From: Callorhinchus milii
Lineage: Eukaryota
Direction of reading: 5' to 3'
Length of the DNA: 64,000 nucleotides
Assembly (NCBI RefSeq): GCF_018977255.1
Contig: NW_024704742.1
Span: 85,066,001-85,130,000 of the forward strand
Position numbers and translations under genes: made by a program. A model generated the notes under the pieces. That model saw only the letters and a program-made list of their open reading frames with translations. It was not told the origin of the DNA and made no database searches. This document shows positions 17,714-63,859 of this stretch, in pieces; position 1 is the stretch's first letter, and each line of letters begins with the position of its first letter.

Positions 17714-18860
17714 ATGGAAGACTGCCTTCACACATGTTCAGAAAACCTGTCCAAACTGGTCAGCTGGGCTCACAGTCATGGGACTATATGCAGTCTCATT
17801 CCAAACCTGAAACACTTGTTGACTGAAGGGGCCCATGGAAACCTGACAGCTATGTGGGGCTGCAGTGCAGGCCATGCTTATCACTGGCCGCTGACTGCTA
17901 CCTGCCGGGCTGGGTCCCAGGATCGGGTATGCTATCAGGACAGTAGGAGTTTTAACTCTGATAGTCCCAGCATAATAGCAGTGTCCTCCGAGGCTCATCA
18001 AAGCCCAGGGGAGAGATTTGTAAGCAGACTCTCAAAGGGAAAGGCAGAGTGTACCAGGAATTTGGATTCCTGTGAGTTTTCATACAGTGAACCCTCCGAG
18101 GTTGATGAGAATGTGGAGTACGAGGACGATATGTTCGATATGGTGTGTGAGTCCTCAGTGACTGATGAAGACAGCGATTACGAATCTCGGCTAGAGCATC
18201 AAAGAAACTCACGGAAAAGGCGAGAAGCAGGGCCTTCACTGTTACCCAATTCTCCGAACCTGGTTATTGAAAACAGTAATGACGTCATTGTCAAAAAGAT
18301 CAAGCAAGAGAGACCTGAAGATTACTATATTGTGGCGAATGCAGAAATTGCTGTAGATAGTAATGGCTCTTCAATCGCATTGACACCAAAGCCAAAAACA
18401 CAGCCAAAGTCTGGGCCAGCTTCTTATTTGGGGCCTACCAAGTCTTCAGCCCTTCTTCCTGCTGCCCATATGGCTGAACAGACTGATTCACAAGGTATTT
18501 CTGTCATTCCACCAACAATCTCCAGGGCAGTAAGCACAAAATCTGGCCGGAGTTCGATAGTGTCACATAACCAGTTGAGTGGGCAGGGAGCCGGCCAGCA
18601 GTTAGTTCTTCAGATGCCAGTCAGCAGCTCTGGAGGCAACCAGCAGATCAATATTCCGTTATCAGCTCTGCAGCTTCCCGGTCAAGAGGATCAGGATACT
18701 TCAGAAGACCTGGATATACAAATGATAAAGACAGGGTCTTCCAGGGAAGCATCTCTGTCTCCACCCATCAGTGCAGAACCTGAAGTCAGCTCCAGTCAGC
18801 AGCAGTCCAGTCTGCTTCAAGTGCTGGCCAAAGATGCCAGTGCACAATCAACAGCAACAG
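17714..18860 (+). CDS. KIAA1958: KIAA1958 shared first coding exon (N-terminal 382 aa plus 1 nt)
   Basis: The ORF starts MEDCLHTCSENLSKLVSWAHSHGTICSLIPNLKHLL...CSAGHAYHWPLTATCRAGSQDRVCY and includes KKIKQERPEDYYIVANAE, which I recognise as the KIAA1958 N-terminus. Acceptor: polypyrimidine tract plus TAG at 17675-17677, so the exon begins at 17678 with a short 5' UTR. Donor: CAG|GTAAGA at 18860/18861, phase 1. Confidence 0.95.
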
Positions 18861-20814
18861 GTAAGACGGTCTTTAACAGGGGAAAAAAACTTCTCTTGTA
18901 ACAGATTATTTGACTGTTGAATTTTCAACATGTGCACTCACGCAAACCTATTACTGCAACTGTAAAATGTGTGTGTGGGTGGGGGGCAGTTTGTTTTATT
19001 TTTTCTAGGATTCATTTGGAATCTAAGATTCGAAGATATTGGTTTCAAATGAAAATAAGAACAGTTGAAATCAGATATATCCACTTATTTTGGTTCAGAC
19101 AGAGGTAGTTGAGTCCCCTTGCACCCTAGATGGTTGAGGCCACTCCCCCAGGGTATTGGAGCCCGCTCCCCCAGGTAGTTAATCGTTCATTGCTATGATA
19201 AAGCTAACTATATTTAGTTAGATTTGTTCATGAGGAGATAGATCATTTTTAAAGGCGTTGTCATCAATTTTTGGAAGTGCCCAGAAATTTATTATGACAC
19301 CCAAGAAATATTGCTAATCTTTTACCACACATTTTCCAATTCCCCTGTTGTTTTTGTGGGTTGAGGCAAGAGGAAGGAGAGCTTGGATAACACAATTATG
19401 CAAGTGTACACAAGTGACCTTCAAGGATGACTACGACAAGTCCAAAGCTAATACAGATTGTAATGAAGACTTGACTGAAGGTATTGCTGGCCTCTCAAGT
19501 TTCCTCCATGGCCCTCCTCTATAGTACATTTTCTAGGCTTGTTTACATGAAAGAAAATTCTGTTCATTTTAAACAGAATCTGGCAATAGGGTTGAAAAAC
19601 ACAGCTTTCTGTTTACCAAGAAAATATTTTAGGAAAGAAGCCACAATATGTCATCAACCAGTCAGTCTAAAACCTGGGCACGCACCAACGTGACAAATTC
19701 CAAACTTTCCCCGTCTCTTATTGGAATATTTTAGCATGTATGTCACTTAACTGCATACTCAAACCCTCTGCACTAAATACAGATTGCTTTCTGAAAAACG
19801 CATTGATTTTATTTTCTCTTGCATAACATAATTTCAGATAAAGTTGCCGCAAATTGGCACAATATGGCCCAAGAAGTGTCCTTTAGCCCTTGGATGTACT
19901 GTATTGTCGATTAGGTTTTCCAGTCACTCAGTAAAGCATGCCTATATGGAAAAAGGCTGTATAACACAACAGGTTTATACTAACCTATTTATCAAGATAA
20001 TCATGTGTGAGTACAAAATAGATGCAGTAAAATGATCAAAGTTATTACTATGAGGAACTTGAGTTAATATATTACGTGGCTTTGTGGGATTCTGGTTCTA
20101 AACTTGGTCACAAGTACAATTGATATTTTTATGGGGGAGAGTGTGGTGGGGGTAGTACTCGGCTGCTCTGCCTCAGAGAAAGGATCCATGTAAGACATTC
20201 TGGTGACACGGTTCCTTTCATTGACATTGCCAAACACTGGCTTCGGGAGTGAAGGATCCCACGGCTCAATGCTACCCTTGTATCTACATTAACACTATGG
20301 TTTCCTGCCTTCACAGTCAGGAGACAGCAATATTAATGGGGATACAAGGGAATGGGAATTTTACAAAAGCTAGGGAAAGAAATAGCTGAAGAACGTGTAA
20401 GGAAAGATTTTTGTTTTAAAAAAACCTTGTTATAGTCAGTGCAATAGAGGAGAATTTTGAAAGCCTTTGCATTTCAACATGGTCTACCAGTTTGATTTTA
20501 TGTCGAGACAAGTTTTTTTTTACGGACACTTTCTCAAACACGTGCAAGGTATATGTTGCAAACGTGCGTAAGTACAGAGGGTGAGACTTTGGGTACCAAG
20601 TCCATGTAACGTAAGTCAGTTTTAACTGAATTTCCATATCAACGTGACCCTCAAGTACAGGAGTGCAGCTCACAGGGTTTATTATTTGAAATGACAGCCT
20701 TACAAAGCAGCAGTAATTATTTCATGGAATGAACTGCAAAGTGAATTTTAAATTGTGTGTAAAGTTTCTCTGACTGGTGCTTCCCCGGGTCAATCAAATA
20801 TCAAGACCATAACT

Positions 20815-20977
20815 AATGTCAATCTACGACTGTTTGTGGGACACTTCTGTGTGAAATTGGCAGCCCCGTTTCGCCCATAAAATACACAGTCAATCCATCC
20901 TACAATATGTGCTATGAAGTGCTTTTGAGACGTCTCAATGGCGTGCTAAGATATTATATCAAATACAAGGATTATTA
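20815..20977 (+). mobile_element. SINE 3' half
   Basis: Body and tail ending atcaaatacaaggattatt. Confidence 0.8.
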
Positions 20978-21285
20978 ATATCGAAGGCAGCAGAGAGGTC
21001 GAGGAAGCAGAGGGAGCCCTTGGTCACAGATGGACAGAATGTCATTTGTCACCTTAAGCAGAGCAGTTTCCGTGCTGTGAGCAGCATGGAAACCCGATTG
21101 GAGGGGCTCGTGAAGGGAGTGGTAAGAGAGGAATGAGTGAAGCTGGGAAGCAGCAACTCTTTCAAGGACCTTCGAAAGAAATGGGAGGTTGGACATGGGC
21201 CGGTAGTTGGAAAGCAGAGATGGGTCCAGGGAAGGTTTTGTTTCAGGATGGGGGTGATTGTAGCTGTTTTTAGGGGGATGGGATT
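20978..21285 (-). mobile_element. L2 reverse transcriptase internal fragment
   Basis: Encodes SNLPFLSKVLERVAASQL...QSGFHAAHSTETALLKVTNDIL. Confidence 0.9.
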
Positions 21286-21299
21286 ACTGTGCAGTTTGG

Positions 21300-21440
21300 T
21301 TTTAAAAGGCATGGAGAAAGGAATATAGGGGTCCAGGGGAGGAGATTAGGAAGGGTGGAGGCTCTTGTGAAGTGTAAACATCAGCACAGACAATTTGGGC
21401 TGAATGGCCTGTTTCTGTGCTCTAACGTTCTATGTAATAC
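21300..21440 (+). mobile_element. CR1-clade 3' end fragment
   Basis: Ends tgggctgaatggcctgtttctgtgct...ttctatgtaat. A similar copy lies at 63400-63612. Confidence 0.65.
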
Positions 21441-21503
21441 TGGATGGATTGTTACACAATGTATGCAACGGCTAACAGCACTATGAAGTGTCACTGCTAC
21501 TAT

Positions 21504-21864
21504 GAAATCCTGTAGCTCAGTGGTTTAGAGCACTTGCCTCGTAAGCAGGAGACCTGGGCTTGATTCCCGGTAGGGCGAAATGTTGGGCAAGTTTCCTTAC
21601 TCCACACGCTTCTGTTTACCTAGCAGTAAGTAAGAACCGGGTTGTTAGTCGATTGGCGGATCGTTTTTCTGGGGATAATAATTCCTTCAAAAAAATTGGT
21701 CACTTCAATCCACGACTGTTTGTGGGACGCTGCTGCGCGCTATTGGCTGCCACGTTTCTCCCACAAAATATTCAGTCAATTCACTTTACACTATATTCTG
21801 TGAAGCCCTTTGAGACGTCTCGAAGACATGATAAGGCACTATATCAAATGCTAGAATTATTATT
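21504..21864 (+). mobile_element. tRNA-derived SINE, full length
   Basis: Box A tagctcagtgg, degenerate box B, body, L2-like tail hairpin and (ATT)n. Confidence 0.9.
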
Positions 21865-24409: not shown

Positions 24410-25197
24410 CAACGACAACAAGATTTCATTTACAGAGCGCCTTTCACGTCGGGAGGACGTCCCAAGGCGCTGTACAGTTGGGTCAGGACCCGAGCAGCGG
24501 GGAAACAGTCAGGGTGAGGGGAGGGAAGGGAGGGAGCGAGGAGGGGGTAGAGAGTCGAGAGGGGAGCTGAAGGCTCGGTCAAAGAGAAAGGTCTTGAGAC
24601 CGGCCTTGAAGGAGGAAAGGGAGGAGGCGGCGAAGGCACTGGGGGATGGAGTTCCAGAGCCTCGGGGCTGAGAGGCTGAAGGCACGACCACCGATGGTAG
24701 GGCGGTTGGGGCGGGGGATGTGGAGCAGACCGGAGCCAGAGGAACGGAGGGTACGGGCAGGTAGGTAGGGGGATAGTAGGTTGGAGAGGTAGGAGGGAGC
24801 GAGGCCGTGAATGGCCTTGTAGGTGAGGATGAGGATCTTGAAATCAATCCTCTGGGGGATGGGGAGCCAGTGGAGGCGAGTGAGGGTGGGAGTGATGTGG
24901 TCCCGAAGCCTGGTGCGGGACAGTACACGAGCTGCAGAGTTCTGAATGACCTGCAGCTTGTGGAGGGAGGTGCCGGGAAGGCCGACAAGGAGAGAGTTCC
25001 CATAGTCCAGCCTTGAGGTGACAAAGGCGTGAACCAGGGTTTCAGCGGCGTGAGGGGTGAGGTAGTGCCGTAGTCTGGCGATGTTCCGGAGGTGATGGAA
25101 GGCGGTGCCAGTTGTGGTGCGGATATGAGGGAGAAAGGACAGCTCAGGGTCGAACAGAACCCCGAGGTTCCTGACGGCTTTGAGAGGTGGAGAGTGC
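24410..25197 (-). mobile_element. Young L2 3' fragment inserted into an older L2 3' end (24366-24409 plus 25198-25415)
   Basis: ORF 24579-25223 encodes VRNLGVLFDPELSF...HLRNIARLR...SRLDYGNSLLVGLP...LHWLP...APRLWNSIP. Nearly identical to 55836-56268. Confidence 0.92.
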
Positions 25198-26699
25198 AGC
25201 CTTGGATGCTGATGCCAAGGCACAGGACAGTCAAGGATTTCGACCCGAACAGGGGCTTGGGATCAGGAGGGGTGGAGAGCAGGGAGGGTGGCCAAAGGCA
25301 CGGTCGAAGAGGAAGGTTTTGAGTCGTGCCTCGAGCAAGGCAAGGGAGGGAGCAAGGGGAAGCGACTGTTGGACAGAGTTGCAAAGGGTGGGGGCAGAGA
25401 GGCTGACCACCCAGACGTATAACGCACCACTGACCACGTTATAAGTGGTTACCCTGTAGTAACCTAATGAATTTCTTCATTCCAGCAATAAAAAAAAGTG
25501 TGCTGGAGGAGGGGAGTAGAGGAGAGAAACAAGTCAGGTACAAATGAAAAGATGCCACTCTAACGGTGTTAAATGAAATGAGTTTAATCCTCTGTGGAAC
25601 AAGCTATAATGGAAACTTTTTTGCAGTTTATATATTGTTTTTTTCCCAAGATGTTTTAAAATGCTGATCTAAGGACAGCTCTAAAAAGCATTTATCATCC
25701 CCTGCCCAGCTTTATATGCTCTTACTACAGAGCTGCATCAGGAGGGAACATAAAATCCACACGACTCTTCCCTGCAATTATGGGTTATTGTCCTTGGCAG
25801 TGGTTGTAATGTACGGTTTATTTGTATACCAGTTTTTGTCGGAACCTATTTTTAAAAATGTTTTTTTAAAAACTCGATCTGTTGGATAAAAACCTTTAAA
25901 CATCCACAGATGTCTGCTAATAGCTTGTAATTAAATACGAACAGGACTGGGATCTAAATGTATCGCATCAGAAAAGAAAGGGCAGCAAATTGAGTAATGC
26001 AATGAATTCGGTGACTAGCCGTTGTGCTCTGCTGGGGCTCAGAGTGGGTAGTTTCTCTTAAGAGCTCCATTAGTTCTAGGTGCCAGCTGGAGCTCAGAGT
26101 TCAAGCCCCGATGTCAGAAAAATATTAACCTCAACTGCCCTGGATCGGGCTATTGAGGAACTGTACTCAGCTACAGGCCCCTGTGTATTGAAAGATTAGA
26201 TTATTATGCGCAATTTATCTTCTGTGGATACTGAGTATCAACTTTCAACATGGCTTGTTTTATTTTCTTTGAACGTTCTTGCAGAAATAATTTTCTGCAC
26301 TCGGTTGCAAACGAAATTCAAGAATGCTGTAAATAACTGTGAAATATTTGGGAAATTCAGAGTGCTTAGAACAAACTTTTTCTAGTTCTTGTATCAACTA
26401 CTTTTTGCATTGCTTCTTGTATTTTCTTTTGCTTAGCTTTTGCTGGATCAGGGTTTTACAGAACATGAGGTGGGTGTGGGAAGGGGGCTGAGATTCGTCC
26501 AGCCATTTACAAACTGTGTGAAGCCCATTTAACAAAGTTGTCCCAAGTAATGTTAATAAAATTGTTTCCACCTGTTGAGAGAACTGGAATTTCCTAAACA
26601 CAAACATGAGACTTGCACACCAGTACCATACTTGAACAGTGCAAGGAATGACATCAAATCTGTGAATCTTATCTGTGGAGCACAGAGTCCTCAGAGCAG

Positions 26700-28900: not shown

Positions 28901-31098
28901 ACAGGAGTTTCTCTTTTCCATCTTTAACAAGTCTTTATTAACAGACCTTTTGCTTCATATTAACAAAAGGTTTCAATGTCAGCTTCGAGGCCAGGAATGC
29001 CAGCAGGAGTGCTGAACAAACAAATCATCCTTCCACCCTGCTCACCCGACATTCCATGCCGGCTTGCACCACATTCATGTCACTGGATTAATGACCAGAG
29101 GCATGTCGAGAGCCCTTGGTTACTGTAACACACAATTATTGTTTGATTCTGCAGTGTTCATTTAATAGACAACCAATGCAGGCAGACACTGTAGATCTGA
29201 CTAAAGAGTGAGATGTATGTAAATTTTAAAATGGATTCAACAAACAATGCAGTATATTTAGTGTATCAAATTTGTAAAACCGATTCAAATCCCTCAGCAT
29301 TAACAAACTGGTGCATACCCATCAATAATACATCAGTTTGCAGCAACTCTTGCTCTGTGGTTATGCGCTTGAGTTAAATGATTTAAATCTCACGAGAGAG
29401 TTCCTGATAGGCGATTAGAATTATTACACCCCATTTACTATTTAATTACAAATGGCCAGCGAGAAGTATATTAACTTTTATGAAAATTATAGTGAATTAA
29501 GCATATAGAATTCTTTCTCTTTTCCATACCAGAAATTTCTAAAGAGTTCAAGACTGCAACTTACACTGTTCTTTAAATGTTTCATAGCTTATTAGCAAGA
29601 AATAATTCTTAGCATTTGGGCATGTAATTTTTATTAATTAATTTTCATATAATCAGTCAACTTTAATATAATCGCTGATTATATATGTTTAACTGTGTAC
29701 TACTGCGTGACTCCAAGAAATGCCTGAAGCCAACCTTGGATATGGCCTTTTTTAACTTAAATGATGCCCAGGGGCCAGTTTCCAAAGCTATATTGTATAT
29801 GTTGATTGATATTCCCCAGGAATCAATTACTGATCATCAGATTAATAATCCTTGCCTTTAATATACCACCTATAAAGTCAAAATGTCTGTGTTTCACAGG
29901 GAATTGCTGATAAGTGAAGTGACTATGTATTTGTAGGCAAACTCAGCAGCCAATTTCCACACAGCAAAGTTCTACAGGCAGCCATGAAGTGGCTGATCAG
30001 CTTATCTGGAGGATCTGACACTTTTCGAATAGCCGAAACAATGATTATCCAGCACCTTGGGACGTCTTCCCGGCATGAAAGGTGCTATACAAATGTAATT
30101 TTGTTGTTTAATGTCCACTCCCAATTGGCACTTGGGCTCTGGTTTAATGTCTCATTCAAAGGATGGCACCTCCACCAATGCAGTGATTATATCAGAGTCC
30201 TTAGTGCTGCGGTGAATATGATTGCATCTCAGCAGCACATCAACCCTCTCATACCCACTGCTGACCATTCATTTTACTGAAAGTAGGAATAAAGGATGCA
30301 CACAAATGTTGTATGTTGGGATCAATTCCTAAGAGAAACGTTTCTGTTTTCTTTCCAGTTTTCTCCTCTCTTGAAAGCACTAACTAAACCACATTGGTTT
30401 AATGATCTGCAATGGCCTACAGTATCAGTATTTGAGTAATCAGCACTAAAAGGAGTCTCTTGTGTGATGTTTTAATTGATATGAGAGCAGTCACAGTGGT
30501 AGATAATGCCCTGTATATTAACTACTGCAGAATAATGTTAGGAAGTCACTACACACAGAGTGAGCTTGGGCAGAAGGGAAAAATGGATCTGGCAGGGCTT
30601 TAAACTATTAATTGTGGGACAGTGCTGTGCACAATTGGCCACCTCGTTTCACCCACAAAATACAGTCAATTCACTTTCCAATATATTCTGTGAAGCGCTT
30701 TGAGATGTCTCAGCGGCATAATAAGGCGCTACATCAAATGCAACGATTATTATAATTGTATTATCCAGAATATTCGATGTTTCACAAACGATTCCCATAG
30801 GTAGTGTTAGTTTGAGCATAAAGCTCATGATAGTGGGAGAATCCAGAGACACTAATGTACTTGGAGGGGAAGCCTCAAATCCTAGACAACACTCCAGGTT
30901 TGAGTGGTAGATCTGTTGTGGTCTAATGTTACAAGAGGCCAAGGGCAGCCTCCCAAGAATGGTGCACAGCAGCAACAAGGAGGCTTCTACACAGTGACTG
31001 AGCAGCTTGCATATTGAGAGACCTTGGTCAGCAATAACAACTTGCATTTATTTATATAGCACCCTCCACGCATAGTAGCTTCTTGGAGCACTCAAGTT

Positions 31099-32140
31099 GT
31101 GGAGCTTGATGCCAATCCAGGGAGAGAGGGAAGGTGGCAATGGCAAACCTTTAAAGATATAGTACATAATTCCCAGCAATCACATATTCCCTTGAGGAAT
31201 AAAAATACCATGGGAAAAGTAGTTCAACCATGGCCAACTAGGGCAGTTAGGGAAAGTTTAAAGTTAAAAGAGACCTTTAATACTACCAAAAAGAGCAGTA
31301 AACCTGAGGATTGGGAGGGCTTCAGAGACCAACAAAGAAAAACTAAGAAACTAATTAGGAGGGAGAAAATGGATTATGAGGGTAAACTAGCTAGGAACAT
31401 AAAGACAGACTGCAAGAGTTTTTATAAATATATAAAGAGAAAGAGACTATCAAAAGTGAATGTGGGTCCATTACATTAATTACTTTAATTAATTACATTA
31501 ATTGAGACATCTAGAAGACGTGAAAAGCGCTATATCAAATGCAAGGATTATTATATTACAGACAGAGACAGAAGGAATTATAATGGAGGATAAAGATATG
31601 GCAGTCATTAAACAAATACTGTGCTTCGGTCTTCACGGTAGAAGACACTGAAAACTGACCAAAAATAGAGGGGAACCAAGAAGCTAATGCAAGTGAGCAA
31701 CTTAGGGAAATTAACATCAGTAAAGAATTAGTACAAGGGAAACTGTTGGGAAATGACAAAATGACAAATCCCCTGGACCTGATGGCCTGCATCCTAGGGC
31801 TTTAAAAGAGGTGGCTGCTGAGATAGTGGATGCCTTGTTTTTGATCTTCCAAAATTCTCTGGATTCTGGAATAGTGGATAACACAATTTAAGAAGGGTGG
31901 GAGAGAGAAGATGGGGAACTATGGACCAGTCAGTCTGACATCGGTGATAGGGAAAATTCTAGAATCCTTAATTAGGGACGTCGTAGTGGGGTACTTAGAA
32001 GACCATAACATGATTAGGCCGAGTCAACATGGCTTTACAAAAGGGAAGTCATGCTTAACAAACCTTGTAGAGTTTTATAAGGATGTAACTAGCAGGTTAG
32101 ATTGGGGGGAAACCAGTAGATGTAGTATATTTAGATTTTC
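31099..32140 (+). mobile_element. CR1-clade LINE ORF2 fragment (left part), containing a SINE tail insertion at 31476-31554
   Basis: Encodes KLARNIKTDCKSFYKYIKRKR...VGPL, a SPGPDG-like segment, and GNYGPVSLTSVIGKILES...SQHGFTKGKSCLTNLVEFY. Breaks off at YLDF. Confidence 0.92.
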
Positions 32141-35100
32141 CGCTACTCCTCCTCTGTCCTTCTCTCCCACCGCCCTCCCCGCCTTCTCTCTCTCCTCGAC
32201 CCCATCACCACTTCCCTCTGCTCCAGCCTGGGCATCCTCCGCTGGGCCCATCATGGCTCCCAGCACTGGCTGTCCCACAGCAGCAACCCCACGTGTCCAA
32301 TCATTCACTCCCTCCGCACAAATCGCTTCCTTAAGGCAAACCCAACTCCCCCTTCCCTCATACATACCCTCCCCAACTCTCCACTCACACCACTCTCCAC
32401 AACCATCTCTCCTGTACACCCCAAAATCCTCTCCGCATCACTCTCTCCTCCCTCCCCCCCGCTCCAGCAAACCCACCCGCATTTCCCTCCAAACCGTCCG
32501 TCCCTCTCAAACAAAGCCCTCGCCATCCACGACCTCATTCTGGACGAGCACCTTGACATTCTTGGGCTCACCGAAACCTGGCTCTCCCCCAGTGACCCCA
32601 TCCGTCTAGTGGAAGCCTCCCCTCCAGGCTACATCTTCTACCACACCCCCCGTCCAAACCAACTTGATGGAGGGGTGGCCTTCATTTCCAAAGCCTCCCT
32701 TGGTCTCACCCCCTAGTCCTCTGGCCGCTTCCCCTCCTTCGAGCACCTCACCCTCTTCCACCCCTCTCTCCCATTGAAAATCATCCTTGTCTACCGCCCC
32801 CCTAAGCCCCCCGGCTCCTTCCACACAGACATCTCTACTCTCCTCTCTTTGCTGTCCCTCTGCTCCGAGCACCTGCTCATAATGGGCGATTTCAACCTCC
32901 ACCTAAACTCCCCCTGCACCACCTCTGCCGACTTCACTGCCCTTCTCTCCTCCCTAAACCTCACCCTTCATATAAATTCACTGACCCACAACCGTGGTCA
33001 GGCCCTTGACCTCGTTATCACCCACGGCCTTGACATTTCCAACCTCAGTATAGTGGACAAGGCCATCTCGGACCACTTCCTCATCTCCTCCTCTTACATC
33101 GCTCTCTCCTCCACCAAGCCCTCAACCATTCTCTACCGCCCTTGGAAAAGGCTACCCCCTGAGACCCTCACAAAGGGCCTAACATCATCAAACATCCTAT
33201 CCCTCCGGCCTTCCACCCGCGGAGACCCTGAAGCAGCCGTCCAGCTGCTCCATGATCGCCTCTCCTCCACCTTCAACTCCCTCATCCCCCTGAAATTCAG
33301 GACCATCTCCAAACCCACCCAATCCCCCTGGAACAACAACCATCTCCGACGCCAAAAAAACCAAACCCGGCTGCTCGAGTGCAGATGGCGGAAAACTGGC
33401 CTGACAGTTCACTGCCAACTGTGGCTCGAGCATCTCCACAGATACTGCCGTTCTTTGACACGCGCAAAAACAACCTTCTACTCCAACATCATCTTGGAGG
33501 CTAAACACAACCCTAAAATCTTTTATTCCACCACCTACTACCTCCTCTGTGCTCCCCCGCTCAGGCCTCCTCAATCTTCATATCAAATGCCAAGTGCGAG
33601 GAGGTCATGGACTTCTTTTCATCTAAAATTCACAACATCCACCAGGCAACCTCATCCACCTGCCTCTTGGCACCCACCACCACGCCCTCTCTGTCCCCCT
33701 CACCCTCCCCATCATCTGCTCCTACCACCACCCCCATCCTACATTCCTTCCTCCCCATCTCTCCCTCCTCCCTCTCACCCACCATCACCTCCACAAAACC
33801 CACCACCTGCTGCCTTGACCTCCTCCCCACCAATTTGCTGGTCACCCAGCTCCCCCTCCTCTGCCCACTACTGGCTGACATCATCAACCAGTCCTTCTCC
33901 TCCAGATCAGTCCCTGCCCCCCTCAAAACTGCTGTCATCACCCCCCCTCCTCAAAAAACCTTCCCTAGATCCCTCAAATCCCAGCCACTACCGCCCCATT
34001 TCTAACCTGCCCTTCCTTGCAAAAGTCCTAGAACGCGTTGTTGCCAATCAACTCCGCGCACACCTCTCCTCCCACTCCCTCTTCGAACCCCTCCAATCCG
34101 GTTTCCGCCCACAGTACAGAGACGGCGCTTGTGAAAGTCTCAAACGACATCCTCTCTATCTGTGACCAGGGCTCCCTCTGCCTCCTTGTCCTCCTGGACC
34201 TCTCCGCCACGTTTGACACAGTCGATCACGCCATCCTCCTCCATTGCCTTTCCTCCGTCATCCACCTCAGTGGGACCGCACTCGCCTGGTTCGAGACCTA
34301 CCTCACAAACTGTCAGCAGTACATCTGCACAAACATCTTCTCCTCCCACTCTCACCTGGTCACCTGTGGGGTCGCCCAAGGATCCATCCTTGGCCCCCTC
34401 CTCTTTCTGATCTACATGCTGCCTCTTAGGGATGTCATCCGCAGACATGGGGTACATTTTCACATGTACGCGGACGACACCCAACTCTATTTTTCCACCT
34501 CTCTTTGGGACCCCCAGTCCCCTGATGTTCTGTCAGTCTGCCTGTCAGATCTCAGGGGCTCGATAGTGCAAATTTCCTTCAGCTGAACGTTGACAAAACG
34601 GAAGCCATACTCTTTGGCTCTCGTCAACGTCTAAAATCTCACGGTTCTCACCTCCTCCACCTACCCGACCTCCCCTTAAAACTCTCCGAATACGTACGCA
34701 ACCTAGGCATCAGGTTTGACCCCGAATTATCTTTCCTCCCCCACATCTGGTCTCTCACCAGCACCGCTTTCTTCCACCTCCGACGCATTGCCTGTCTCCG
34801 CCAATACCTCTCTCCGAAAGCCGCTGAAACCCTGGTCCATCCCTTTGTCACCTCTCGGCTGGACTATTCTAACGCCCTCCTCACCGGCCTCCCCTCCACT
34901 ACCATCCATAAAATCTAGATCATTCAAAACTCTGCCGCCCACATTCTCACCTGCACCAAACTCCGCTCCCCGATCACCCCAGTCCTTGCCAGACTGCACT
35001 GGTTGCCTGTCCCAGAGAGGATCGACTTCAAGATTCTCACCTTGTATTCAAATCTCCACTCCTCTGCACCTCCCTACCTCTCTGACCTCCTCTCTCCTCA

Positions 35101-35382
35101 AAATAGTACCCGTTGCCTTCGTTCCTCCGGGTCTGGCCTCCTCCTCATCCCCCGACTCCTCCTCTCCACCCTTGGCGGCCGTGCCTTCAGCCACTATGCC
35201 CCGAGGCTCTGGAATTCCCTTCCTCACTCCCTTTGCCTCGCTCCCTCTCTTCCTATTTTCAGGTCCCTGATGAAGACCTTTCTCTTCGACCGCGCTTTTG
35301 GTCACCTTCCCCCTCTCCCCCCCCCCCCCCCCGAGACATCGTCCGGCGTGGAGTGTACTGTATAAATCTAAGTCACTGTTGT
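32141..35382 (+). mobile_element. Near-complete, frameshifted L2 ORF2 (APE endonuclease plus RT) nested in CR1
   Basis: APE motifs LDILGLTETWL, IMGDFNLH, LDLVIT and SDHFLI. RT motifs YRPISNLPFLAKVLE, STETAL, LLDLSATFDTVDH, GVAQGSILGPLLF and YADDTQLY. C-terminal LHWLP...APRLWN. Degenerate 3' tail at 35333-35382. Confidence 0.95.
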
Positions 35383-43442: not shown

Positions 43443-44482
43443 ACAATGAAGAACGAGGGTCCGAAGGTCAACAGAACGAGAAAACCGTCCGAAGCACTTT
43501 GACCGCACTGCGTAACTTCCGTGAATTCCTCATTTCCAAATATCCACAGGAAAATCGGGAGATTCAAATAATCCCAGCCTCGGAGCTCGATGCCTACCTG
43601 GCTTCCTTCTTTGTGGACGCCAGGCAGAAGGACGGCTCTGAGTACGAGCCCAACAGCTTGGCCAACTATCAATGTGGACTTGAAAGGTACTTAAAGGAAC
43701 ATAAATATGGGTTTAGTATAACAAGGGATAAGGAGTTCAGACACTCTCAAGAAGCATTGAAGCAGAAACAGCTTGAACTGAGAGGCAAAGGCAAAGGAAA
43801 CAAGCCACACAAGTCCATGAAATTGACTTTTGCAGATGAGCTCATCCTGCGCAAAAGAGGGCTGCTGAGTCGATACAATCCCGAGGGGCTGCTGAACCTG
43901 GTCTGGTTAAATAACACGAAAGCCTTTGGGCATTGTGCTGGATTCCACAGCTCCACACTGAAATGGGGGGACATCAGGTTGCACGTAACCGAGACGGCCT
44001 TGGAGTACCTGGAATGGGGAATTCCTGACCTCAGCGACCTGCAGGGGAAATCCCGGAGAGCAGGGACAGAGTGCAGGATTTACGCCACACCACACTCTCC
44101 GCAGACATGTCCCGTGCAGGACTACAAGGAGTACGCTCAGAGACGCCCGCCGGCAATGCGTTATGAAGACGCACCTTTCTATTTGTCTATCAAGCCAGTC
44201 TGCAACCTGGCGGCACTTTACTGGTACAATAGCCAATCCCTCGGGAAAAATAAGCTCTCAAAGATGGTGAAAACCATGTGCGAAAAGGGGAATATTCCTG
44301 GTAGAAAGACCAACTTTAGTGTTTACCAGAGCTGCAGTTCCTTGTCCGAGGCACAAAGCAACCAGCTAGTGTTAATATGTAACAACTTGAGCCAGCAAGC
44401 TGCTCAGTCAATGTCTGGCCTGGCCAACACAGGAAACTTCATCATTTCTGGCTCTTTCGACTCTTCATCTGACACAGCCTGA
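43443..44482 (+). CDS. KIAA1958: KIAA1958 isoform-b-type terminal exon encoding a complete DUF3504 (Crypton tyrosine-recombinase-derived) domain
   Basis: Strong acceptor ttttctttctcttctttctcAG (AG at 43441-43442). A phase-1 join gives D-NEERGSEGQQNEKTVRSTLTALRNFREFL..., in frame with the 43499-44482 ORF. Motifs RQKDGSEYEPNSL, LKWGDI, CPVQDY, RRP, PFYL and LGKNKL are typical of DUF3504. The exon ends SSSDTA*. Spliced CDS 2187 nt, 728 aa. Confidence 0.93.
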
Positions 44483-47400
44483 CAGAAATGAGCTTCGGAA
44501 TTTTTTAAAATTATTTTGTTTTATTATTCCGTATGTTCCCTCACCTTTTATACAGTCTAATTATCCCTCAGTCACTCATAACTCGTTTTGAAATGCAGTC
44601 CTTCAGGAGGTTATTGACCTGAATTGTGTCTTGAGACAGAAGACCCATTAACGCTCCAGTGATTGAGTGTACAGCCTCAATGGTTGTACGACCCATTTTT
44701 GTTTAAGAAAACAAATCATGTATAGATTTCAGTTTAGTTTCCCCCATCCCTCAACTAAATCAAAATGCACCTTTTGAAATGTCATAATTTAGATATTTAT
44801 ATTAAAATGCCATTGCTAAATTTGTTTTTAAATAACCAAGAAATACCATATTTCCTCAGGCCACCTCAGCCAGACGTCCTTTATTATTGAATATGCACTA
44901 CAAAAAGAGAGGGGAAATGGTCTAATGCTGAACATGGAAATTATACAGTAGACCAGATTTGCAGTAAAATAGAGAAGTGACTGCACAGAGGGATAGCTTC
45001 CTCCTATCCTGACAGTCTCACAGTGGGTATATCGCTTTACTAAGGACTGGATTCACCAGTTAGCAATGAGTAAACCTGGGCTTGAACCTCTAGAATCTCC
45101 ATGGTGGCTGCCACATTGCAACTTATCCTATACCCTGTATAGGTCCTTCCACCATGCTGAAGTACCTTGAACCTACTGTCCAGTTAGTGACGACAGTAGG
45201 TTCAGCTGGTGCCTGTCCTCATTGCAGCGGGAGAGAAGTGGTGTCTCTTCGAGCTGAGTTGGCTCCACGGTGACATGCATAGCAATGGAGCATCAGAAAC
45301 TTCATTGGCAGTTTTTGGTATTCCGATAGCTGAGCTCGGCAGGTCCACAGTACTCCAGAGCTCTGTTGATGATTGACCTGCCAGCCTGGCTCATCAATGG
45401 GACTTGAAAGAGCAGACCAGCCAGTTGGTCCCTTGTAGTAGTTCTTGCTGGACAAGTAGCATTTGCAATGACAAATTAGCAGGTTACATTCCAGCAATAC
45501 AGTAAAACTCGCACAAGTTGTTTCTTTATAAATCATATAAACACCTAAGTCATACATATACTTGAGTCCCGTTCAGTTTCCCACCAAAAAACACTTGCAC
45601 TAGTCGTATTTTATAAGTCGGATAAACAGCTAAATCATAACGGTTTTGGGTCCCAAATAATCCTATGCAAATCATCTCCTAAATAATACAGCTGCTGTAT
45701 TTATTGGTTGCATTGAAGTCAGCATGCGCAGTGTTCTGTTTGAAACAAGTGCAGGAAATGAAGGCTTGACCCGTCACCTCATGCACACTTATCAGCTGCA
45801 GTGATGAAGTACTGCATGCGCAGTACAGTGCAGAAAACAAGGTCTTGAGCCGTCATCATTGCATCAGGCAATACAGGTACAGCAAGTTAGTGACAAGGAC
45901 CTTGTACTTGTTTACTGTATTTGTTATGTGTTAGTTGTCTAAAATCCAACTTGTACACAACTTTGATTAAGTTGTATTTGGTACAAATTATCAAGATTGC
46001 CTGTAACTCATACTTCGTGTGAGTCATATTATATGTTATGGTTCCGACTGGTGGGACTTATGCGAGTTTACCTGTATCCCAATACGCACTTTGTGGTCCC
46101 CATGTCTTTCCTGCTGCCAACCTGCATCTAAGCTCTCTGGGTGCAGGGTACATTTCTCTGGGGAGAGAAGGTGAACTTCGTACCAGACAGATGAAAAGCA
46201 CATGTAAGGGGAACTTTTAAGTATGGTTTGGAGACTCTTAAGCCTGATGATGGGTTTTTATGCAGGTGAGACACCCTGGCTGATAAAAAAACAAGCTCTG
46301 GTTTGAAAATAGGTGAAATAGGGAAAATAATTACTTTTTTTAAATTAACAAAACATGGGGCTGTGGGTCTTGGAGGTCCTGCAATCTCTTGTCACCGTAT
46401 TAATTGTTTTGTCCATCTTCTGTACTCAGTCTTTAATCACATTCTCCCCAGTGTTAGCGCTTTAGCACTGCCCTGTAACCTGTATATTTCTCTGCCTGCC
46501 TCCCTGTAGCTAATTGCATTTCCCCTTGTACTGCCCAGTGCTCCATCCAGGACACAAAATGATCCTTTTATCAATTGGTTCTGGGTACTTTGTTGAGCTC
46601 CCTACATTGAGAAGCGCCTGCTGTAAGATAAACTGCTATCCTACTCCATGCCATCACTTGGATTTCAATCAAGCGTTAACAGTGGATGGGGACATTTTTG
46701 TACAGCAGCTATGTAGTCATTTTTTCACTAAGATCTGCAGCTTTGTGGAGTCCAGTATTTGTAACCCAGTGAATATCACTTCCTGTAAAGCTGTCTGCCA
46801 GACTTAGCGGGTGCATGACAGATGTGCGCTGGCCCCACAAGAACTATATGGATTGCAGAAATATTTGGCAAAAATTGCAGGAAGTTTGACAAATTTTGAA
46901 AAAAATTGGGGAGAACTTTGACAAATTTTGCGGGAGTTGCGGAGGCTTGGTTGGTGTTATTGAGACACATTTTGTGAAGCAACCCGGATTAAAACTATAG
47001 GCGTATAGTTAATTAACTATAACTATGTTCAAATGTTAATTTGAATAGTACAGCACTTATCAAGAATTGGTTGCAAGAGCTCAGTTTAGGCCGGGCGTCG
47101 AGCAAACAGACAGTAGTAGTGTCCCACAGCTGCTATTTCTATTGAGATTCACTCACTAGCGGGCGAAGGCGATTTCCCGCTTCTGTGACTCCAATACTCT
47201 CCGTGCATGAGCGGCCGGTCCCGCTCCACCCACAGTAACAGTATCGAGCAATGGCCTGCAGAGGCCCAGGCTATGTGTGTACAGGTTTGTAGCGGAGGGG
47301 GGCGTTTGTAGCGGAGGAGGGCGTTTGTAACAGATTCCGTGGAAAAAATGCAGCCTCACTTTTCTATTGGCCCAACCCAGCAGTATAGTTGTACATTATG

Positions 47401-50400
47401 TCCTTCTAAATGTGTGCACATTTTTGAGCAAGAGGAAGAAGTACTGGGTGAAATGTGAGACCCTGCATTGAACGTAACCATTAGAAAGGAACAGGCACAG
47501 CATTGAAGTATATTGATTGAATTTCCTTTTTTTTCTGCATTGGTGCCAATACATTAAATTACCCACGCGATAACACGCCCTAACCGTCATGTTTCCAGTT
47601 TGCCCTGACAGACATGAGTGAGAAAAATTTCAGCTTTTCCAGTGATATTTGAAACAAAAATTGTTTTTCCCAATCTGTTGGTTAAAGCTTTCAGGAATCC
47701 AAGATCTATTTTTTAGGCAGTCCAAATCATCACGCTGTACGTGACGATTCCCATAGTTTTGACGGGAAGCCATTCATCTGGGTGGGTTATAGAACAAAGT
47801 AGAAATGTTAACCTGGTCGAACCTAATGGGTCATTGTCTTGTAAATCTAGGTGAATGCTCTTAAAATTTGCACCATGTGCTGTTGAGGCTGCTGTGGATA
47901 AAGAGGAAGAAATGCAATGTCCTGGTTAACTCATTGTATTGCCACTACTGTAAATGAGGTTTCTTTTTGCATTCCCTTCCTAGCAAAATCATTTCCCGAT
48001 GAAAACATTTTGCGCGTCAGTTTACACCTTTTGCGTGCACCTGAAACTTGCTGGTGAAACTTCTCTGTCAATTTGAATTTCTTTTTTGAACTCACAACTC
48101 CCCTCATCATACATTTCCTATTTGTTTTTGAAAACTCTTTATCATTTGAACTACTTGTATATGTTCCTCATTTGCCAGCACTGATATTTGTTAAAAAAAA
48201 TTCAGAAGAAATAAGCTAGTGATAATAAATGGCATTTATATAGTAACAAAAATTGCATTTATATAGCGCCTTTCACATCGGGAGGACATCCCAAGGCGCT
48301 GGCAGCAGTATGGGGTAGGGCAGTGGATGCCATTTTCACTTTTGATCAAGGAGCTGCAGCTCTGTGTAGTCCAGTTTTTGTAACCCAATGAATATCACAT
48401 GAAGTAGAATGCTGTGCAGGACACTGTGTTACTTCCTGTAAAGCTGTCTGCACTCGCTGTCTGTCTGTAAGTTTGTTTGTCTTTCTGTCTCTGTCTGTGT
48501 AGCTTAGTTCTTCATGAATGAATGATGCCCAGTTTGTCAGCTGATTAAAATGATAGATAAAATTCTTAGAAGAGGTTAATGAAATAATGTGCCTACAAGT
48601 GCATGAAATGAATGGTTGAGAAAGTTACTTTTTGCAAAAAAAAGTATTGATTGTTTGTTAGACTAAACCTTGAGCTTTTAGCATCCAAACACAATTATTG
48701 CTTTTTAACAATATGCAAAGATCATTGGTTAGGAGACTGTTAGCTACCGCTTTTTATTCAAAAGCTAATACATTATGTACAAATGAGTGAGTTCAGACCT
48801 GCTGTAACATTTCTGCACCAATGTTAATTGTTCCATGAATACTATGAACTATGAAATCTGTGCATATCTCTTACTGTACTTCGTAATGCTTCTCATTATA
48901 AGCATACAGTAAATGAATGTGTCCACTTTTTTAATACAAAAGAACAGAGATGTGTGTGCACGTGCGTCTGTTTTGAAAGTTGAAAGGTCTTTCAGTGCTC
49001 GAAGGGTTAAAAACAAAACAAACCAGTTTTGGTTTGAGTTTAGAGGTCAGCTTCTGTGGCTCTAGTTTTTAACCCCAGTTTGAAATTCTTTAGGATACTG
49101 TGAAGCTCATTAATCACTGCCTGAAGTGTAGTAGATGACTATCATGAAAATTACTATTCTATGTAATTTTGTTGTCTCACTTTTATTAAAGTATATTAAA
49201 AACAATCTAGTGTTTAGGTGAAGCCTAATTAAACTGGCCTTTATAGACTGTGTTTTCTTTGCAAAAATCTTTTATATGTTGAACAACCCCTCCCCAGCGA
49301 CACACTTTTTTGAGAATGTAGCACTTATTTTACCTACACACCACCACCACAAGTAGAAATGTTCCGGTTATGTGATTTTTGCTGAATAAACAACCAGCTT
49401 GGTGAGCCACATGCAATGTCTGTCTGGCTGCTCAATGTTACTTGTTTAAAATGCCTTATTGGCAGAAGATGCAAATTTCTTGGGCTTTGGGTACTTACAA
49501 GACAAGAATCTGAGGTTACTAGGTTTAGTTAAATTCCAGTTGACCAAAACTGGAAACGTTAGTTTATGAAAAGGTTCAGTTAGGTAGTGTCACCCAAATT
49601 GACTTTTAATCAATTTTAATCTCTTCTTCTGTGCCCCCCACCACAAATATAAAGTATCTTTATCAGTGCCTGTTCATTTAACATTACTGATTGTAACCAG
49701 CTCGAGACAGATCCATACAGTAAGTAGGTCCTGTCTCCTTACAGACAGCCACAGCAAAGCTCCCACTTCCTTGCAAAGTCTCTGGGGCCTAGAACCTTGA
49801 GGGGCCTTTCTGTTTTGCTGCTGAAGTTGTGCAACATTTAACTAAAGCACGGAAAGCCGTACCCTACCTTATTCTGTTTTCAGTATCAGCTTGGGCTATT
49901 ACTACCCTGTTAATATTAGGCTGCTTTTGTAGGAAGATTAGATTTGACTTTCCTTAGCTAAAAAGAGTTGAACTACAATATCCATGAACGATTTTGTTCA
50001 TGATCTCCATTTTGCCAAGTGTACTGTGATTGATTTTTGTTTCCCAACCTGAGTATACATTTAATTATTATGTTATGCAGCAAATCTAACACATGTACAT
50101 TCTGCAATCTGAGCAATCATTTCACAAGGTACCTTATTGAAACATGAAACATCTTGCGCCCAGGGTGGCTGAATACTTAATTAGCAAAGCATATATATAT
50201 ATATCTATATTTTGTTTTTTGACACTGACCACTGACATCTGATTTTTTTCCGAATGAAGAATATTTGTAAGAAAGAAACACAAATTTCTAACTCCTAAAT
50301 TCTAAACAGTATTTTGTCAAAATAAAAATGTTGCTGTCATGCCAAAAAACATGCAAAACTCTATGCATTTTGTAATCAAGTGGTATTGTTACAGTGCAGA

Positions 50401-51385: not shown

Positions 51386-51737
51386 CATGTAATTCCTACA
51401 GCAGAAAATTACAAAGCCTTGGTGGTGTCATCCCCTTTAACTTTAATGGGTAGAACGGGTCTCAAACCACGACTGTTTATGGGGCACTGCTGTGCACAAT
51501 TGGTCTTGGTCTCTTTCAGCTTCCACCTTGAAAAGCTGGAGTATGGAGCACACATGCCTCCTATTTTTTCATCTCCTGTAAACAATAATAATAATAATCA
51601 GTGTTTATCTATTTAACTTCAGTTGTCAATGATCGGCCCAGGTGCATACACTCTCTAGCTGTACGAGTTTGGCTGACTCCTGATTCCACAGTATCTTCTC
51701 TTGCCCCTGCAGAAAACTCAGTTTGATGTCATTTAGT

Positions 51738-52392
51738 GTCCCTCACCAGCACCCCCTTCTTCCACCTCCGACACATTGCCTGTCTCCGCCAATACCTCTC
51801 TCTGAAAGCCGTTGAAACCCTGGTCCATCCCTTTGTCACCTCTCGGCTGGACTACTCTAACGGCCTCCTCGCCGGTCTCCCCTCTACTACCATCCATAAA
51901 ATCCAGATCATTCAAAACTTTGCCACCCGCATTCTCACCTGCACCAAACTCTGCTCCCCGATCACCCCAGTCCTTGCCAGACTGCACTGGCTGCCTGTCC
52001 CAGAGAGGATCGATTTCAAGATCTTCACCTTGTATTCAAATCCCTCCACTCCTCTGCACCCCCNTACCTCTCTGACCTCTCTCCTCAAAACAGTACCCGT
52101 TGCCTTCATTCCTCCAGTTCTGGCCTCCTCCTCGTCCCCTGAGTCCTCCGCTCCACCCTCGGCGGCCGTGCCTTCAGCCACTATGCCCCAAGGCTCTGGA
52201 ACTCCCTTCCTCACTCCCTTCGCCTCACTCCCTCTTCCTATTTTCAGGTCCCTGTGAAGACCTTTCTCTTCGACTGCCCTTTGGTCACCTTCCTTCCCCT
52301 CCTGGCTCGGCCCCGGATCCGTTACTGTGAAGCGCTCTGAGACGCCGTCCAGCGTGGAGAGCGCTATATAAATCCAAGTTGTTGTTGTTGTT
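51738..52392 (+). mobile_element. L2 3' fragment (same subfamily as 32141-35382)
   Basis: Encodes FHLRHIACLRQYLS...SRLDYSNGLLAGLP...LHWLPVPERIDFKI. Tail agcgctctgagacgccgtccagcgtggagagcgct followed by (TTG)n. Confidence 0.92.
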
Positions 52393-60787: not shown

Positions 60788-62310
60788 ATAGAACCATACA
60801 AATTTACAGCACAGAAAATGACCATTCGGCCCATCGTGTCCGTGACTCCCTCAACAGCAATCCTTTCAGGCCTTACACTAACCTGTCCTTTCCTCCATGT
60901 CCCTGAGGCTGACTCTTTTTAAGGTATTTGTCTAATTCCCTCTTGAAGCCAATATGGATTCTGCCACAACCATTGCTCCCGGCAGGGCATTCTATATCCT
61001 AACTACTCTGTGTGAAAACAAATTCTCCTAACTTCCCCTTTGTTCCAGAAAAAAAATCCCATCTTCTGCAATCTTTGCTCATAAGCCAAACCACTCGTCC
61101 TCGGTATCATCCCTGTCAATCTTCTCTGCACCCTCTCTATCACATTGACATCTTTCCTAAAGTGTGGTGACCAATACTGAACACAACAGTTGTCTAACTA
61201 ATGATTTATGTAAGTTTAGGATTACCTCTTTGCTTTTATATTTGAAACCCTATAAAACCTAACATTTCATTAGCTATTTTGACAACTTTCTCAACTTGCC
61301 TTTCCACCTTTAAGGATGTATGTACATTAACTCCCTAAAGTCTCTTTAGTCTTCTATTCCTTTTAATATTTTATCACCCAACATATGGGTTCTCCTTATT
61401 CTTATCTCCTTATTCCCAAAATATATAACCTCGCATTTGGGTCTGTATTAAATTGCAATTGCCATTTCTCTGCCCAATCAACTAAATAGTTGCTTACAAT
61501 CTTCTTCATTGTCAATTACATTTCCTATTTTCATGTCATCTGGAAACTTAGAAATTGCGCTCCTTATACCAGAATCCAGATCATTTATAAATGGAGAAAA
61601 GCAATTGTCTTAACATTGACCCCTGGGTAACACCACTATTTACATCTCTCCATTGCACATATAACAACCTTGGTGTCCCGCTCTGTGTCCTATGCTTTAA
61701 TCATCTTTCTATCCATGCTGCTACCCTCCATTTATAAAATGTGCCTTTTTTTTAACAAGCCTCCTATGCAGCACCTTATTAAAAAACTTTCTGAAAATTC
61801 TGAAGGTTATGTACAACATCCACAGCATGATTTGATTCATTAATTCATCCATATTGATTCATCTATTTTCTTGGTTACTTTGTGAAAAAAAATTGTCAAG
61901 CGGGACTTACCTTTAACAAATCCACGCTGACTGTTTTTAATCAACGCATGTCTTTTCAAGTATTTATTAATATTATCGCATATTATAGCCTCTAACAGTT
62001 TGCCTGCTATGGGTGTTAGATTGACCGATCTATAATTACTCCTGTTCTCCAATTTTAAACAGAGGTGTTACATTAGCTACCCTCCAGGCTCCTGGCACAA
62101 CTTTTAATTTCAAGGATGTTCAAAAAATTGTAGTCAGAGTATCTATTATTTCCTCCCTGGTTATCACTTCTCTTTGCTGCACATCCTCCTCTTGTACACT
62201 CAGTGTCTCACAACCACTCTCTGCTGTAAAAACTGAGGTGATAGTTTGTAAAATCTACTCATTAAGTATCTCTGCCAAACCTTCATTTTCTATGACTAGA
62301 TTTCTCTTTT
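60788..62310 (-). mobile_element. Old degenerate CR1-clade LINE (RT region plus 3' end)
   Basis: Encodes NYRSVNLTPIAGKLLEAII...SQRGFVKGKSRLT. SGVTQGS-like and DDM-like remnants are present. 3' end acagcacagaaaatgaccattcggcccatc. Confidence 0.85.
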
Positions 62311-62714
62311 GATGAGGAATGCAAGAATTTTTATTACTGCTCAGCAAAATCTGCTAACTTGTATTTATAATAACTTCCTTTTGATTGTCATTTTCTTCCC
62401 TATGATTGAGTGACATGGATACAGCTTGGTTACTGCTCTACCATTCTCTGTATGAGTGTGTGAGGCTCCACCTGGAGTGAAAGCAGGTTATTGTATTGAG
62501 CAGCAGACCCTCACCACCAATCTGTCTTCACTGACTTTCACAAATGTGCACTTTCCTGTAGAATATCGCCACCTAGAGATGAGAAGGACAATTGTATTGT
62601 GCCCCACCTCCCTGGCTGAGATAAACTAGCAGTCTAGACGATGAATTGAACCTTGGTTGTGTCTGATCCATAGGGCTCAATATTGTTAGTTATTGAACTC
62701 ATAGTCTACACTGT

Positions 62715-62885
62715 GAGACATTGCAGTACAGTACTAAGGGAGCGCTGCATTGCTGGAGGTGTTAAAATCAATGTCCCATGTGTCTGTTCTGACAGCTCAT
62801 ACGAATTGTAAAGATCCCAGGTACAATTTTGAAGAGCAGGATGTCCTTCCTCTTAATGTACTGGCCAATATTCCTCCCTCAGGTG
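62715..62885 (+). mobile_element. DeuSINE-like core fragment
   Basis: cagtactaagggagcgctgcattgctggaggtg...gtaaagatcccaggtacaattttgaagagcagg...ctggccaatatt. Confidence 0.65.
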
Positions 62886-62904
62886 GTATAGATCACAAGA
62901 TAAA

Positions 62905-63400
62905 ATAATAATCCTTGCATTTGATATAGCGCTTTTCATGTTTTTGAGACGTCTCAAAGTGCTTCACAGAATATGCTGTAAAGTGAATTGACGGTATATT
63001 TGTGGGCGAAGCGCGGCAGCCAATTGCGCACAGCAGTGTCCCACAAACAGTCATGGATTGAAAATGACCAATTTGTTATTATTTTTTGGAGAGATTATTA
63101 TCAGGCGTGTGGAGTAAGGAAACGTGCCCAAGGTCTTCGCCCTGTCTGGAATTGAACCCAGGTGTCTCGCTTGCAAGGCGAGTGCTCTAACCACTGAGCT
63201 ACAGGACTCCAGGAATATACTGTAAAGTGAATTGACTGTATATTTTGTGGGTGAAACGCAGCAGCCAATTGCACACAATGGTGTCCCACAAACAGTTGTG
63301 GATTAAATGACCAAATTATAATCTTATTAATTATAAAATATTAATTTGAAAGTGATCCACCAATCGACTAACAACCGGGTTCCTACTTACTGCTAGCTAA
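62905..63400 (-). mobile_element. Tandem SINE pair: a full short-body copy (62905-63211) abutting a partial long-body copy (63213-63400)
   Basis: Two consecutive copies of the gaatatactgtaaagtgaattgac...gtgtcccacaaacag body. Confidence 0.88.
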
Positions 63401-63692
63401 AGATTGGTTTGGATGAAGAAGAGCATCCGGCTCATCTATCTGAAATTGCTGTATCTACGTCTCACTGTCTGAAACTGTTGTAAGTGCAGAAGAAAGGAAT
63501 ATAGGGTTTGGGAGAGCAGATTAGGAGGGTGGAGTATAAACACCAGCACACACTAGTTGGCCTGTATCTGCACTGTAACCTTCCAAAGAGTCCTGTGTAA
63601 TTCTGTGTAATAATTCTCATTGCCTGAAACTGCTCACTCTAATTCAATCACTCTAATTTTAAACCCGTTTTGTGCGACCTTTATTTTTCTAG

Positions 63693-63859
63693 CTCTGTCT
63701 GGAAAACTCAACAAGTTTCCCATCTTTGATGGTCAATTGAAGGAGCTGTGCACGAGCGCTGTGAGTGCTAACACCACCAAGGCCACACTGTACTCACTAA
63801 ACGTCTGGAGGTACTGGTGTGTGACGCGGGAACTGAAGCAGTTCATGGACATTACAAAG
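63693..63859 (+). CDS. KIAA1958: KIAA1958 isoform-a-type internal exon (start of the second DUF3504-associated module; continues outside the window)
   Basis: Acceptor ctttatttttctAG at 63691-63692. A phase-1 join gives ALSGKLNKFPIFDGQLKELCTSAVSANTTKATLYSLNVWRYWCVTRELKQFMDITK, then donor AAG|GTATGT (phase 0). This matches my recollection of the canonical KIAA1958 segment KLNKFP...LCTSAVS.NTTKAT.Y.LNVWRYWC...DITK. Confidence 0.9.

Follow-up and report, generated by a model that had tools for sequence, protein, structure and literature searches.

The described systems closest to the locus treated here include KIAA1958 itself, as presented by Kojima and Jurka in 2011, and QRICH1, another gene with a DUF3504 domain. 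The 2011 account (PMC3212892; for this and the other papers cited, the accessible part of the text is meant) describes an a/b design in which two modules, about 25% identical to each other and each with a dead catalytic site, are ordered with b upstream of a. It reports b as not found in chimaera, with splicing unconfirmed and b being either a later arrival or lost, and its supplement 5 lists no Callorhinchus milii b. The DUF3504 of QRICH1 binds SEPHS1 in a zinc-finger co-regulator complex (10.64898/2026.10.26.761783; PMC13538652). Here we analyzed a stretch of 64,000 nucleotides from the elephant shark C. milii (assembly GCF_018977255.1, contig NW_024704742.1, positions 85,066,001 to 85,130,000 of the forward strand; hereafter the window) that carries most of KIAA1958. 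We consider it probable that one constant exon is spliced either to module b or past b to module a, which spans two exons, and that the two resulting proteins, whose Crypton domains are dead, likely serve in the nucleus as co-regulators that differ in their partners or DNA targets. As the a/b design was published in 2011 and shark annotations already include both isoforms, the core result is expected rather than surprising; the analysis provides direct splice evidence in a species where b had been reported missing.

The identity of the gene is apparent from protein comparison. The constant exon (exon N) is 100% identical to the named KIAA1958 proteins of C. milii and to P0001/P0002, and named vertebrate KIAA1958 proteins match it at 57-79%; on this basis the window gene is the elephant shark KIAA1958. 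The module names a (downstream) and b (upstream) were assigned from supplement 4 of PMC3212892, where 1958a_Cm, compared by eye, reads the same as the DUF3504 part of the last exon found here. Of the best 120 of 316 exon N matches, 100 have the downstream module as their C-terminus and 19 the upstream one, and 1 has both. The exons concerned are the following.

Ending at G000:C1:85061731, upstream of the window: exon 1, placed from contigs of sequencing runs X1-X3.
17678..18860, + strand: exon N, the constant exon (exon 2); coding from the ATG at 17714, 382 codons plus 1 nt (1147 coding nt); phase-1 donor ACAG/GTAAGA.
43443..44482, + strand: coding part of module b, a terminal exon; 345 codons in one uninterrupted open reading frame (ORF); acceptor TCTCAG/ACAATG, pyrimidine tract 1.0.
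63693..63859, + strand: first exon of module a, internal; 167 nt, phase 1 in and phase 0 out; acceptor TTCTAG/CTCTGT, pyrimidine tract 0.75; donor AAG/GTATGT.
63860..64000, + strand: start of the 1422-nt GT..AG intron that precedes the final exon of module a.
G000:C1:85131282-85132094, + strand, outside the window: last exon of module a, 270 codons, placed by genome search.

The acceptors at 43443 and 63693 both preserve the reading frame when joined in phase 1; the introns measure 24,582 nt and 44,832 nt respectively. An earlier note on this DNA, made from the letters alone, had joined the phase-1 donor at 18860 to both, had taken the host to be chondrichthyan and had named the gene KIAA1958; the coordinates and phases are confirmed, and the identity of exon N to named C. 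milii proteins bears out host and gene. Its picture of two exons encoding two recombinase-fold modules, chosen as alternative last exons, holds for b, whose exon is terminal, and has to be corrected for the exon at 63693, which is internal: module a spans two exons, with DUF3504 in the later one. The 63693-63859 exon encodes the start of a SAM-like subdomain and is 66-93% identical to its orthologs; taken alone it has no Pfam match, and the intron in module a sits within this N-terminal subdomain, ahead of DUF3504. The first Met of the b exon comes only at residue 125, so as a separate gene b would be without its N-terminal subdomain. A genome search for module copies gave 6 matches, with one locus above 33% identity.

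By chance, an in-frame join is a 1-in-3 event per acceptor, and the weight of the argument therefore rests on RNA. Fourteen runs were listed and six compared, of which X1-X4 belong to one study and X5-X6 to a second. Contigs of X1-X3 span exon N and continue into exon 1. In X3 and X4 the sequence past 18860 is the first 30 nt of the 43443 exon, the only junction assembled there. In X1 and X2 two contigs branch at 18860, and their mixed consensus is, letter for letter, that of 43443 plus 63693 (agreement 0.617 against a reported 0.62), with 63693 the sole partner position in 93 kb. A contig of 1197 nt in X1, recognized at both ends by the same length and the same depth of 68.1, runs from the last 30 nt of exon N through 63691-63856 and then across the 1422-nt GT..AG intron, and an X3 contig likewise joins the 63693 exon to the last exon across that intron. 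Contig depth in X1 is 78.5 for the b branch and 68.1 for a, a measure that cannot rank isoforms. Both junctions, 18860->43443 and 18860->63693, are seen.

Both tails belong to the DUF3504 family and both have lost the enzyme. Module b scores 64.9 bits and the last exon of module a 117.7 bits in Pfam (cut-off 29.7), and the two share 25% identity. In b, Cys replaces the first catalytic Arg and F-x-x-Y the H-x-x-R segment in 57/57 pattern-matched rows; nothing of the R-H-R-Y tetrad is left, and its tail does not align to the His/Tyr segment. Module a keeps the first Arg (122/122); both His and Arg are missing from its H-x-x-R segment, and it ends ahead of the His/Tyr segment. Judged by these residues both modules are catalytically dead, and a recombinase fold does not make a recombinase. 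The predicted model of b (pLDDT 80.9, pTM 0.57) best matches QRICH1 in Zincore (Foldseek E 2.4e-10; VIA Z 16.0, rmsd 16.7, 254 aligned), followed by Cre (VIA Z 13.5, rmsd 5.4, 254 aligned), and b is thus predicted to adopt a two-lobed tyrosine-recombinase fold. Module a can be placed in the recombinase group by its sequence; in the Atlas it lies next to KIAA1958, QRICH1 and integrase clusters. Compared with mammals, b is 84-85%, a 71-72% and exon N about 59% identical, and b is 93-96% identical to shark and skate b. That b and a are highly conserved, yet only 25% identical to each other, argues that both are under strong and separate constraint.

The checks and the contrary outcomes that the earlier note had listed can be answered from these data. 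Both junctions were seen, in contigs of four runs of one study; both modules lie above the Pfam cut-off; the model of b resembles QRICH1 and Cre as a recombinase fold should; and, where the note had named a single junction, a b gene with its own promoter or a lack of DUF3504 as speaking against it, two junctions, a b exon lacking Met until residue 125 and DUF3504 matches in both modules were found. The view of KIAA1958 as a DUF3504 gene with a/b isoforms agrees with both the domain matches and the design published in 2011.

Many similar copies are a hallmark of an active CryptonA, and the genome search gave no close copy of b. A search for DUF3504 gave at least 21 matches on at least 9 contigs, and most of these matches look like host-gene exons. 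A profile scan of 93 kb for a third module in the introns gave only b, a and a short, near-identical partial duplicate of the last exon of a (L009:5200-5390), which lies about 24 kb past the window end and 23 kb downstream of that exon and comprises the acceptor and the first ~53 codons, followed by a stop.

Of the 20 elasmobranch species seen, 16 have both an N+a and an N+b model listed; among the members listed (15 of 23 in the main N+b cluster) three further elasmobranch species have a only, and Heterodontus has a single concatenated model. N+b is annotated in sharks, rays, lungfish and mammals. Both modules, b ahead of a, are shared by chimaera, sharks, rays and tetrapods, which puts the origin of the design in the gnathostome ancestor, and the conclusion, drawn from sequence comparison, that the two-tail design with both captures was present in the ancestor of all jawed vertebrates stands, much as the earlier note had supposed. 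Lamprey or hagfish were not seen among the named matches, which cover the best 120 of 316 exon N matches and 20 of 83 head-domain relatives. Isoform b is therefore not an addition of bony vertebrates, and a small question left open in print is now settled.

A third form of the transcript and the 3' end of isoform b add two features.

43443..43520, + strand: internal form of the b exon, 78 nt, with a weak donor TCC/GTGAAT at 43521; the isoform would be N, 26 residues of b and module a, annotated as P0002 (734 aa).
44483..48286, + strand: likely 3' untranslated region (UTR) of isoform b, with AATAAA at 48224.

Among the 120 best-listed proteins, 23 combine N, 26-28 residues of b and a (the chimaera and 22 others from mammals, turtles and alligator; 21 by pattern plus 2 turtles). 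The 78-nt form was not found in the compared runs, where contigs drop rare variants. The residue after L-R-N-F in 57 b sequences is Arg in 49, Lys in 6 and another in 2; as a Lys codon makes this donor impossible, the donor is not universal. The second X1 branch contig is 4874 nt long and, if colinear, would end at 48286, near the AATAAA, which fits b as a terminal exon. Neither the 78-nt form nor the head domain discussed below is described in the accessible KIAA1958 account of PMC3212892.

How could such a gene work? Splicing and polyadenylation at exon b would compete with skipping to a, which would yield two nuclear proteins that share the head and differ in the dead recombinase domain. 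If QRICH1 is a guide, these domains may act as protein or DNA clamps for different partners or DNA-bound factors. Both captures would precede the split of cartilaginous and bony fishes. The earlier note had called the function essentially uncharacterized, which remains apt for the molecular role and no longer for the phenotype: mouse KIAA1958 knockouts (six animals) have reduced electroretinogram amplitudes without marked structural change (PMC12503315). The knockout and the QRICH1 structure together make the function of each tail testable by isoform-specific deletion.

Several points weigh against this proposal. All the junction evidence consists of assembled contigs from one study, and the a junction has 30 letters on the exon N side, below the 31-letter rule for a bridge. 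The runs are only presumed to be RNA, none being so recorded, and the spliced contigs are themselves the evidence for it; X5 and X6, from the second study, cover parts of the last exon of a and hold no junction. Since contig depth cannot rank the isoforms, tissue switching is a proposal. The fold prediction concerns module b, and the co-regulator role is drawn by analogy from QRICH1, to which identity is 16-18%. Lineage losses indicate that not every species needs either module: the 2011 account reports a as absent from zebrafish and as without function in chicken and zebra finch (PMC3212892), 'LOW QUALITY' or short bird models concern mainly a, and module b may be decaying in some birds.

Such losses would suit a different reading, in which the modules are scaffolds without a DNA or chromatin role, or a and b are equivalent in function and the splice choice mainly alters 3' UTR and dosage; the likely 3.8-kb UTR of isoform b points the same way. 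However, redundancy would not predict two modules that are 25% identical and each 71-85% conserved from chimaera to mammals, and the relatives of head and tails are chromatin regulators, which leaves this reading unlikely, if worth keeping in mind. Far less probable is a reading in which the N-to-b junction is splicing noise and 43443-44482 belongs mainly to a gene of its own, separate or nested, or is a fossil Crypton. Its ORF is indeed uninterrupted and transposon-like, b is nearer to free Crypton-like proteins (34-37%) than to a (25%), and the C. milii NCBI models seen are N+a and N+26aa+a, the N+b model seen coming from UniRef only. Noise would hardly be the sole junction assembled in X3 and X4 or reach a depth similar to that of a in X1, though, and the late first Met, the near identity to shark and skate b and the N+b models from sharks to mammals all oppose a separate gene. 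That one module is still an active recombinase or nuclease we regard as scarcely credible: the fold matches Cre and a keeps the first Arg, but neither module retains H-x-x-R, a stops short of the His/Tyr segment and the tail of b fails to align there, unlike that of the intact ORF in an ATF7IP intron (see below).

The reading of two spliced isoforms with dead domains leaves room for more than one origin of a and b. In a tree of 23 rows with long branches, including only 3 free Crypton-like proteins, all retrieved with b as query, b groups with KIAA1958L (support 97/96). With b placed there, an exclusive a+b clade is ruled out (p-AU 0.025), and a clade of a, b and L, with support of 53/10, is neither established nor rejected. 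This tree would fit either tandem duplication or two insertions. KIAA1958L was reported in birds and platypus in 2011 (PMC3212892). We found no KIAA1958L-type gene in the C. milii genome. Genes of this type with a head domain of their own occur in axolotl, turtles, sturgeon and gar (P0236, P0239, P0240, P0257).

The constant exon itself carries two conserved elements.

17714..17899, + strand: unnamed head domain of ~60 residues, W-x-H-x-H-x3-C ... W-x-C-x2-G-H; no significant Pfam match.
18299..18310, + strand: IKQE, which fits psi-K-x-E; a psi-K-x-E lies within residues 150-260 of 120/120 listed orthologs.

Residues 1-62 are nearly invariant among orthologs, and W18, H20, H22, C26, C50, G53 and H54 are invariant in 39/39 aligned sequences. 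The invariance of the His and Cys residues suggests a zinc site, and the head is predicted to bind zinc. Its model (pLDDT 88.3) consists of a strand, a helix and three strands; Foldseek gave nothing for it at E <= 0.001, the best VIA Z was 4.6, and neither PDB sequences nor the Atlas held a match, which does not imply a novel fold. The motif psi-K-x-E is the SUMO acceptor consensus, and the IKQE site may well be SUMOylated. A full scan gave 83 head relatives, and among 79 scanned for domains we found DUF3504 in 13, C2H2 fingers in 6, zf-AD in 8, CCDC106 in 4 and an AP-2-like domain in 1; two head-domain matches, P0250 and P0277, look spurious. Among the relatives that carry a name are ZNF276, a ZNF692-like protein and KIAA1958-like genes from turtles, axolotl, sturgeon and gar. 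The head could have come from a ZNF276/ZNF692-type gene or a shared ancestor, with the transposon exons gained in its intron.

C. milii has two head paralogs, ZNF276 on C14 and an uncharacterized gene on C5. The latter (G000:C5:2152884 region; L030, L050-L052; P0248) combines a KIAA1958-type head with an AP-2-like C-terminal domain (Pfam TF_AP-2, E 1.7e-14) and has two small exons that each occur twice, ~3.6 kb apart. At ZNF276 the head-domain exon and the zf-AD exon occur twice (G000:C14:5910143 and 5922845, 12.7 kb apart), with the first zf-AD copy in two frames, a local duplication or an assembly artefact.

Other tails appear behind the same head, in annotation models that are not junction-checked: the tail is BEN-like in eel, pike and loach, is CCDC106 in alewife and lumpfish, and is of another kind in axolotl. 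In one anchovy model, head, BEN-like, CCDC106 and b are all joined in a single protein. The BEN-like call is weak, with one Pfam match (E 0.0065, below the cut-off) among 5 scanned, plus a UniRef name. In the skate N+b cluster, the unnamed protein P0172 has exon N followed by a basic tail that looks helical and resembles neither a nor b; it may be a third tail specific to skates. A search of 133 kb at the chimaera locus gave none of these teleost, axolotl and skate tails. We tentatively suggest, at somewhat less than even chances, that KIAA1958 is a tail-collecting cassette: a zinc-binding head shared with ZNF276/ZNF692 whose downstream intron repeatedly captured unrelated alternative last exons (two dead Cryptons, the BEN-like and CCDC106 tails of teleosts, the axolotl and skate tails), so that one promoter would drive lineage-specific chromatin regulators and a and b would be Zincore-like clamps with different partners. 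Exon capture may thus be a more general way of building regulators, as the shared head and the additional tails of teleosts suggest.

Elsewhere in the transcription unit, an upstream ORF of 8 codons runs across the junction of exons 1 and 2 (G000:C1:85061731 plus 17678-17692 of the window) and stops shortly before the main ATG. The window introns hold decayed LINE-type endonuclease/reverse-transcriptase pieces at 24512-25438, 31060-35362 and 51727-52254, recognized by translation.

Two other Crypton loci of this genome came to light. On C31, in a gene that we take from its sequence to be ATF7IP, two same-strand Crypton-type ORFs lie between the first coding exon and the FN3 exon, at G000:C31:3488015-3489481 (L013:8015-9481) and C31:3468213-3470567 (L011/L012). 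The second retains R, H-x-x-R, H and Y; it is the gnathostome ATF7IP Crypton that has already been published (PMC9004415). The first, a 785-codon frame with a dead recombinase end that is not described in the accessible part of PMC9004415, could be a second captured module. At G000:C13:1600264-1601847 (L016:264-1847) a 528-codon DUF3504 ORF, 33% identical to b and outside the a, b and L clades, is possibly a further domesticated Crypton gene.

Set beside the known systems, the chimaera locus agrees with the KIAA1958 of Kojima and Jurka in gene, in the order of b upstream of a, in the ~25% identity and in the dead site, and differs in that the accessible account (PMC3212892) has no splicing evidence and no chimaera b. 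QRICH1 (Zincore, PDB 9HJT) shares with it a C-terminal, dead DUF3504 fold preceded by a small head and a long linker of low complexity; QRICH1 differs in having a single, intron-split DUF3504 and no switch, at 16-18% identity. The KCTD1 long isoform and the intronic Crypton of ATF7IP resemble it in that a recombinase exon was captured by a host before the gnathostome split (PMC3212892; PMC9004415), but each has one captured module rather than two, that of KCTD1 is N-terminal, and the ATF7IP ORF is catalytically intact in C. milii. ZNF276 and ZNF692-like proteins share the ~60-residue His/Cys domain and end in C2H2 fingers (ZNF276 also has zf-AD), whereas KIAA1958 ends in DUF3504. Drosophila lola and mod(mdg4) join a constant N-terminal exon, there a BTB head, to dozens of alternative C-terminal modules, with trans-splicing. 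Exon N has no BTB match, and KIAA1958 is thus like lola and mod(mdg4) by design rather than by membership: a constant head with alternative tails, two in the chimaera and more in the teleost and axolotl models.

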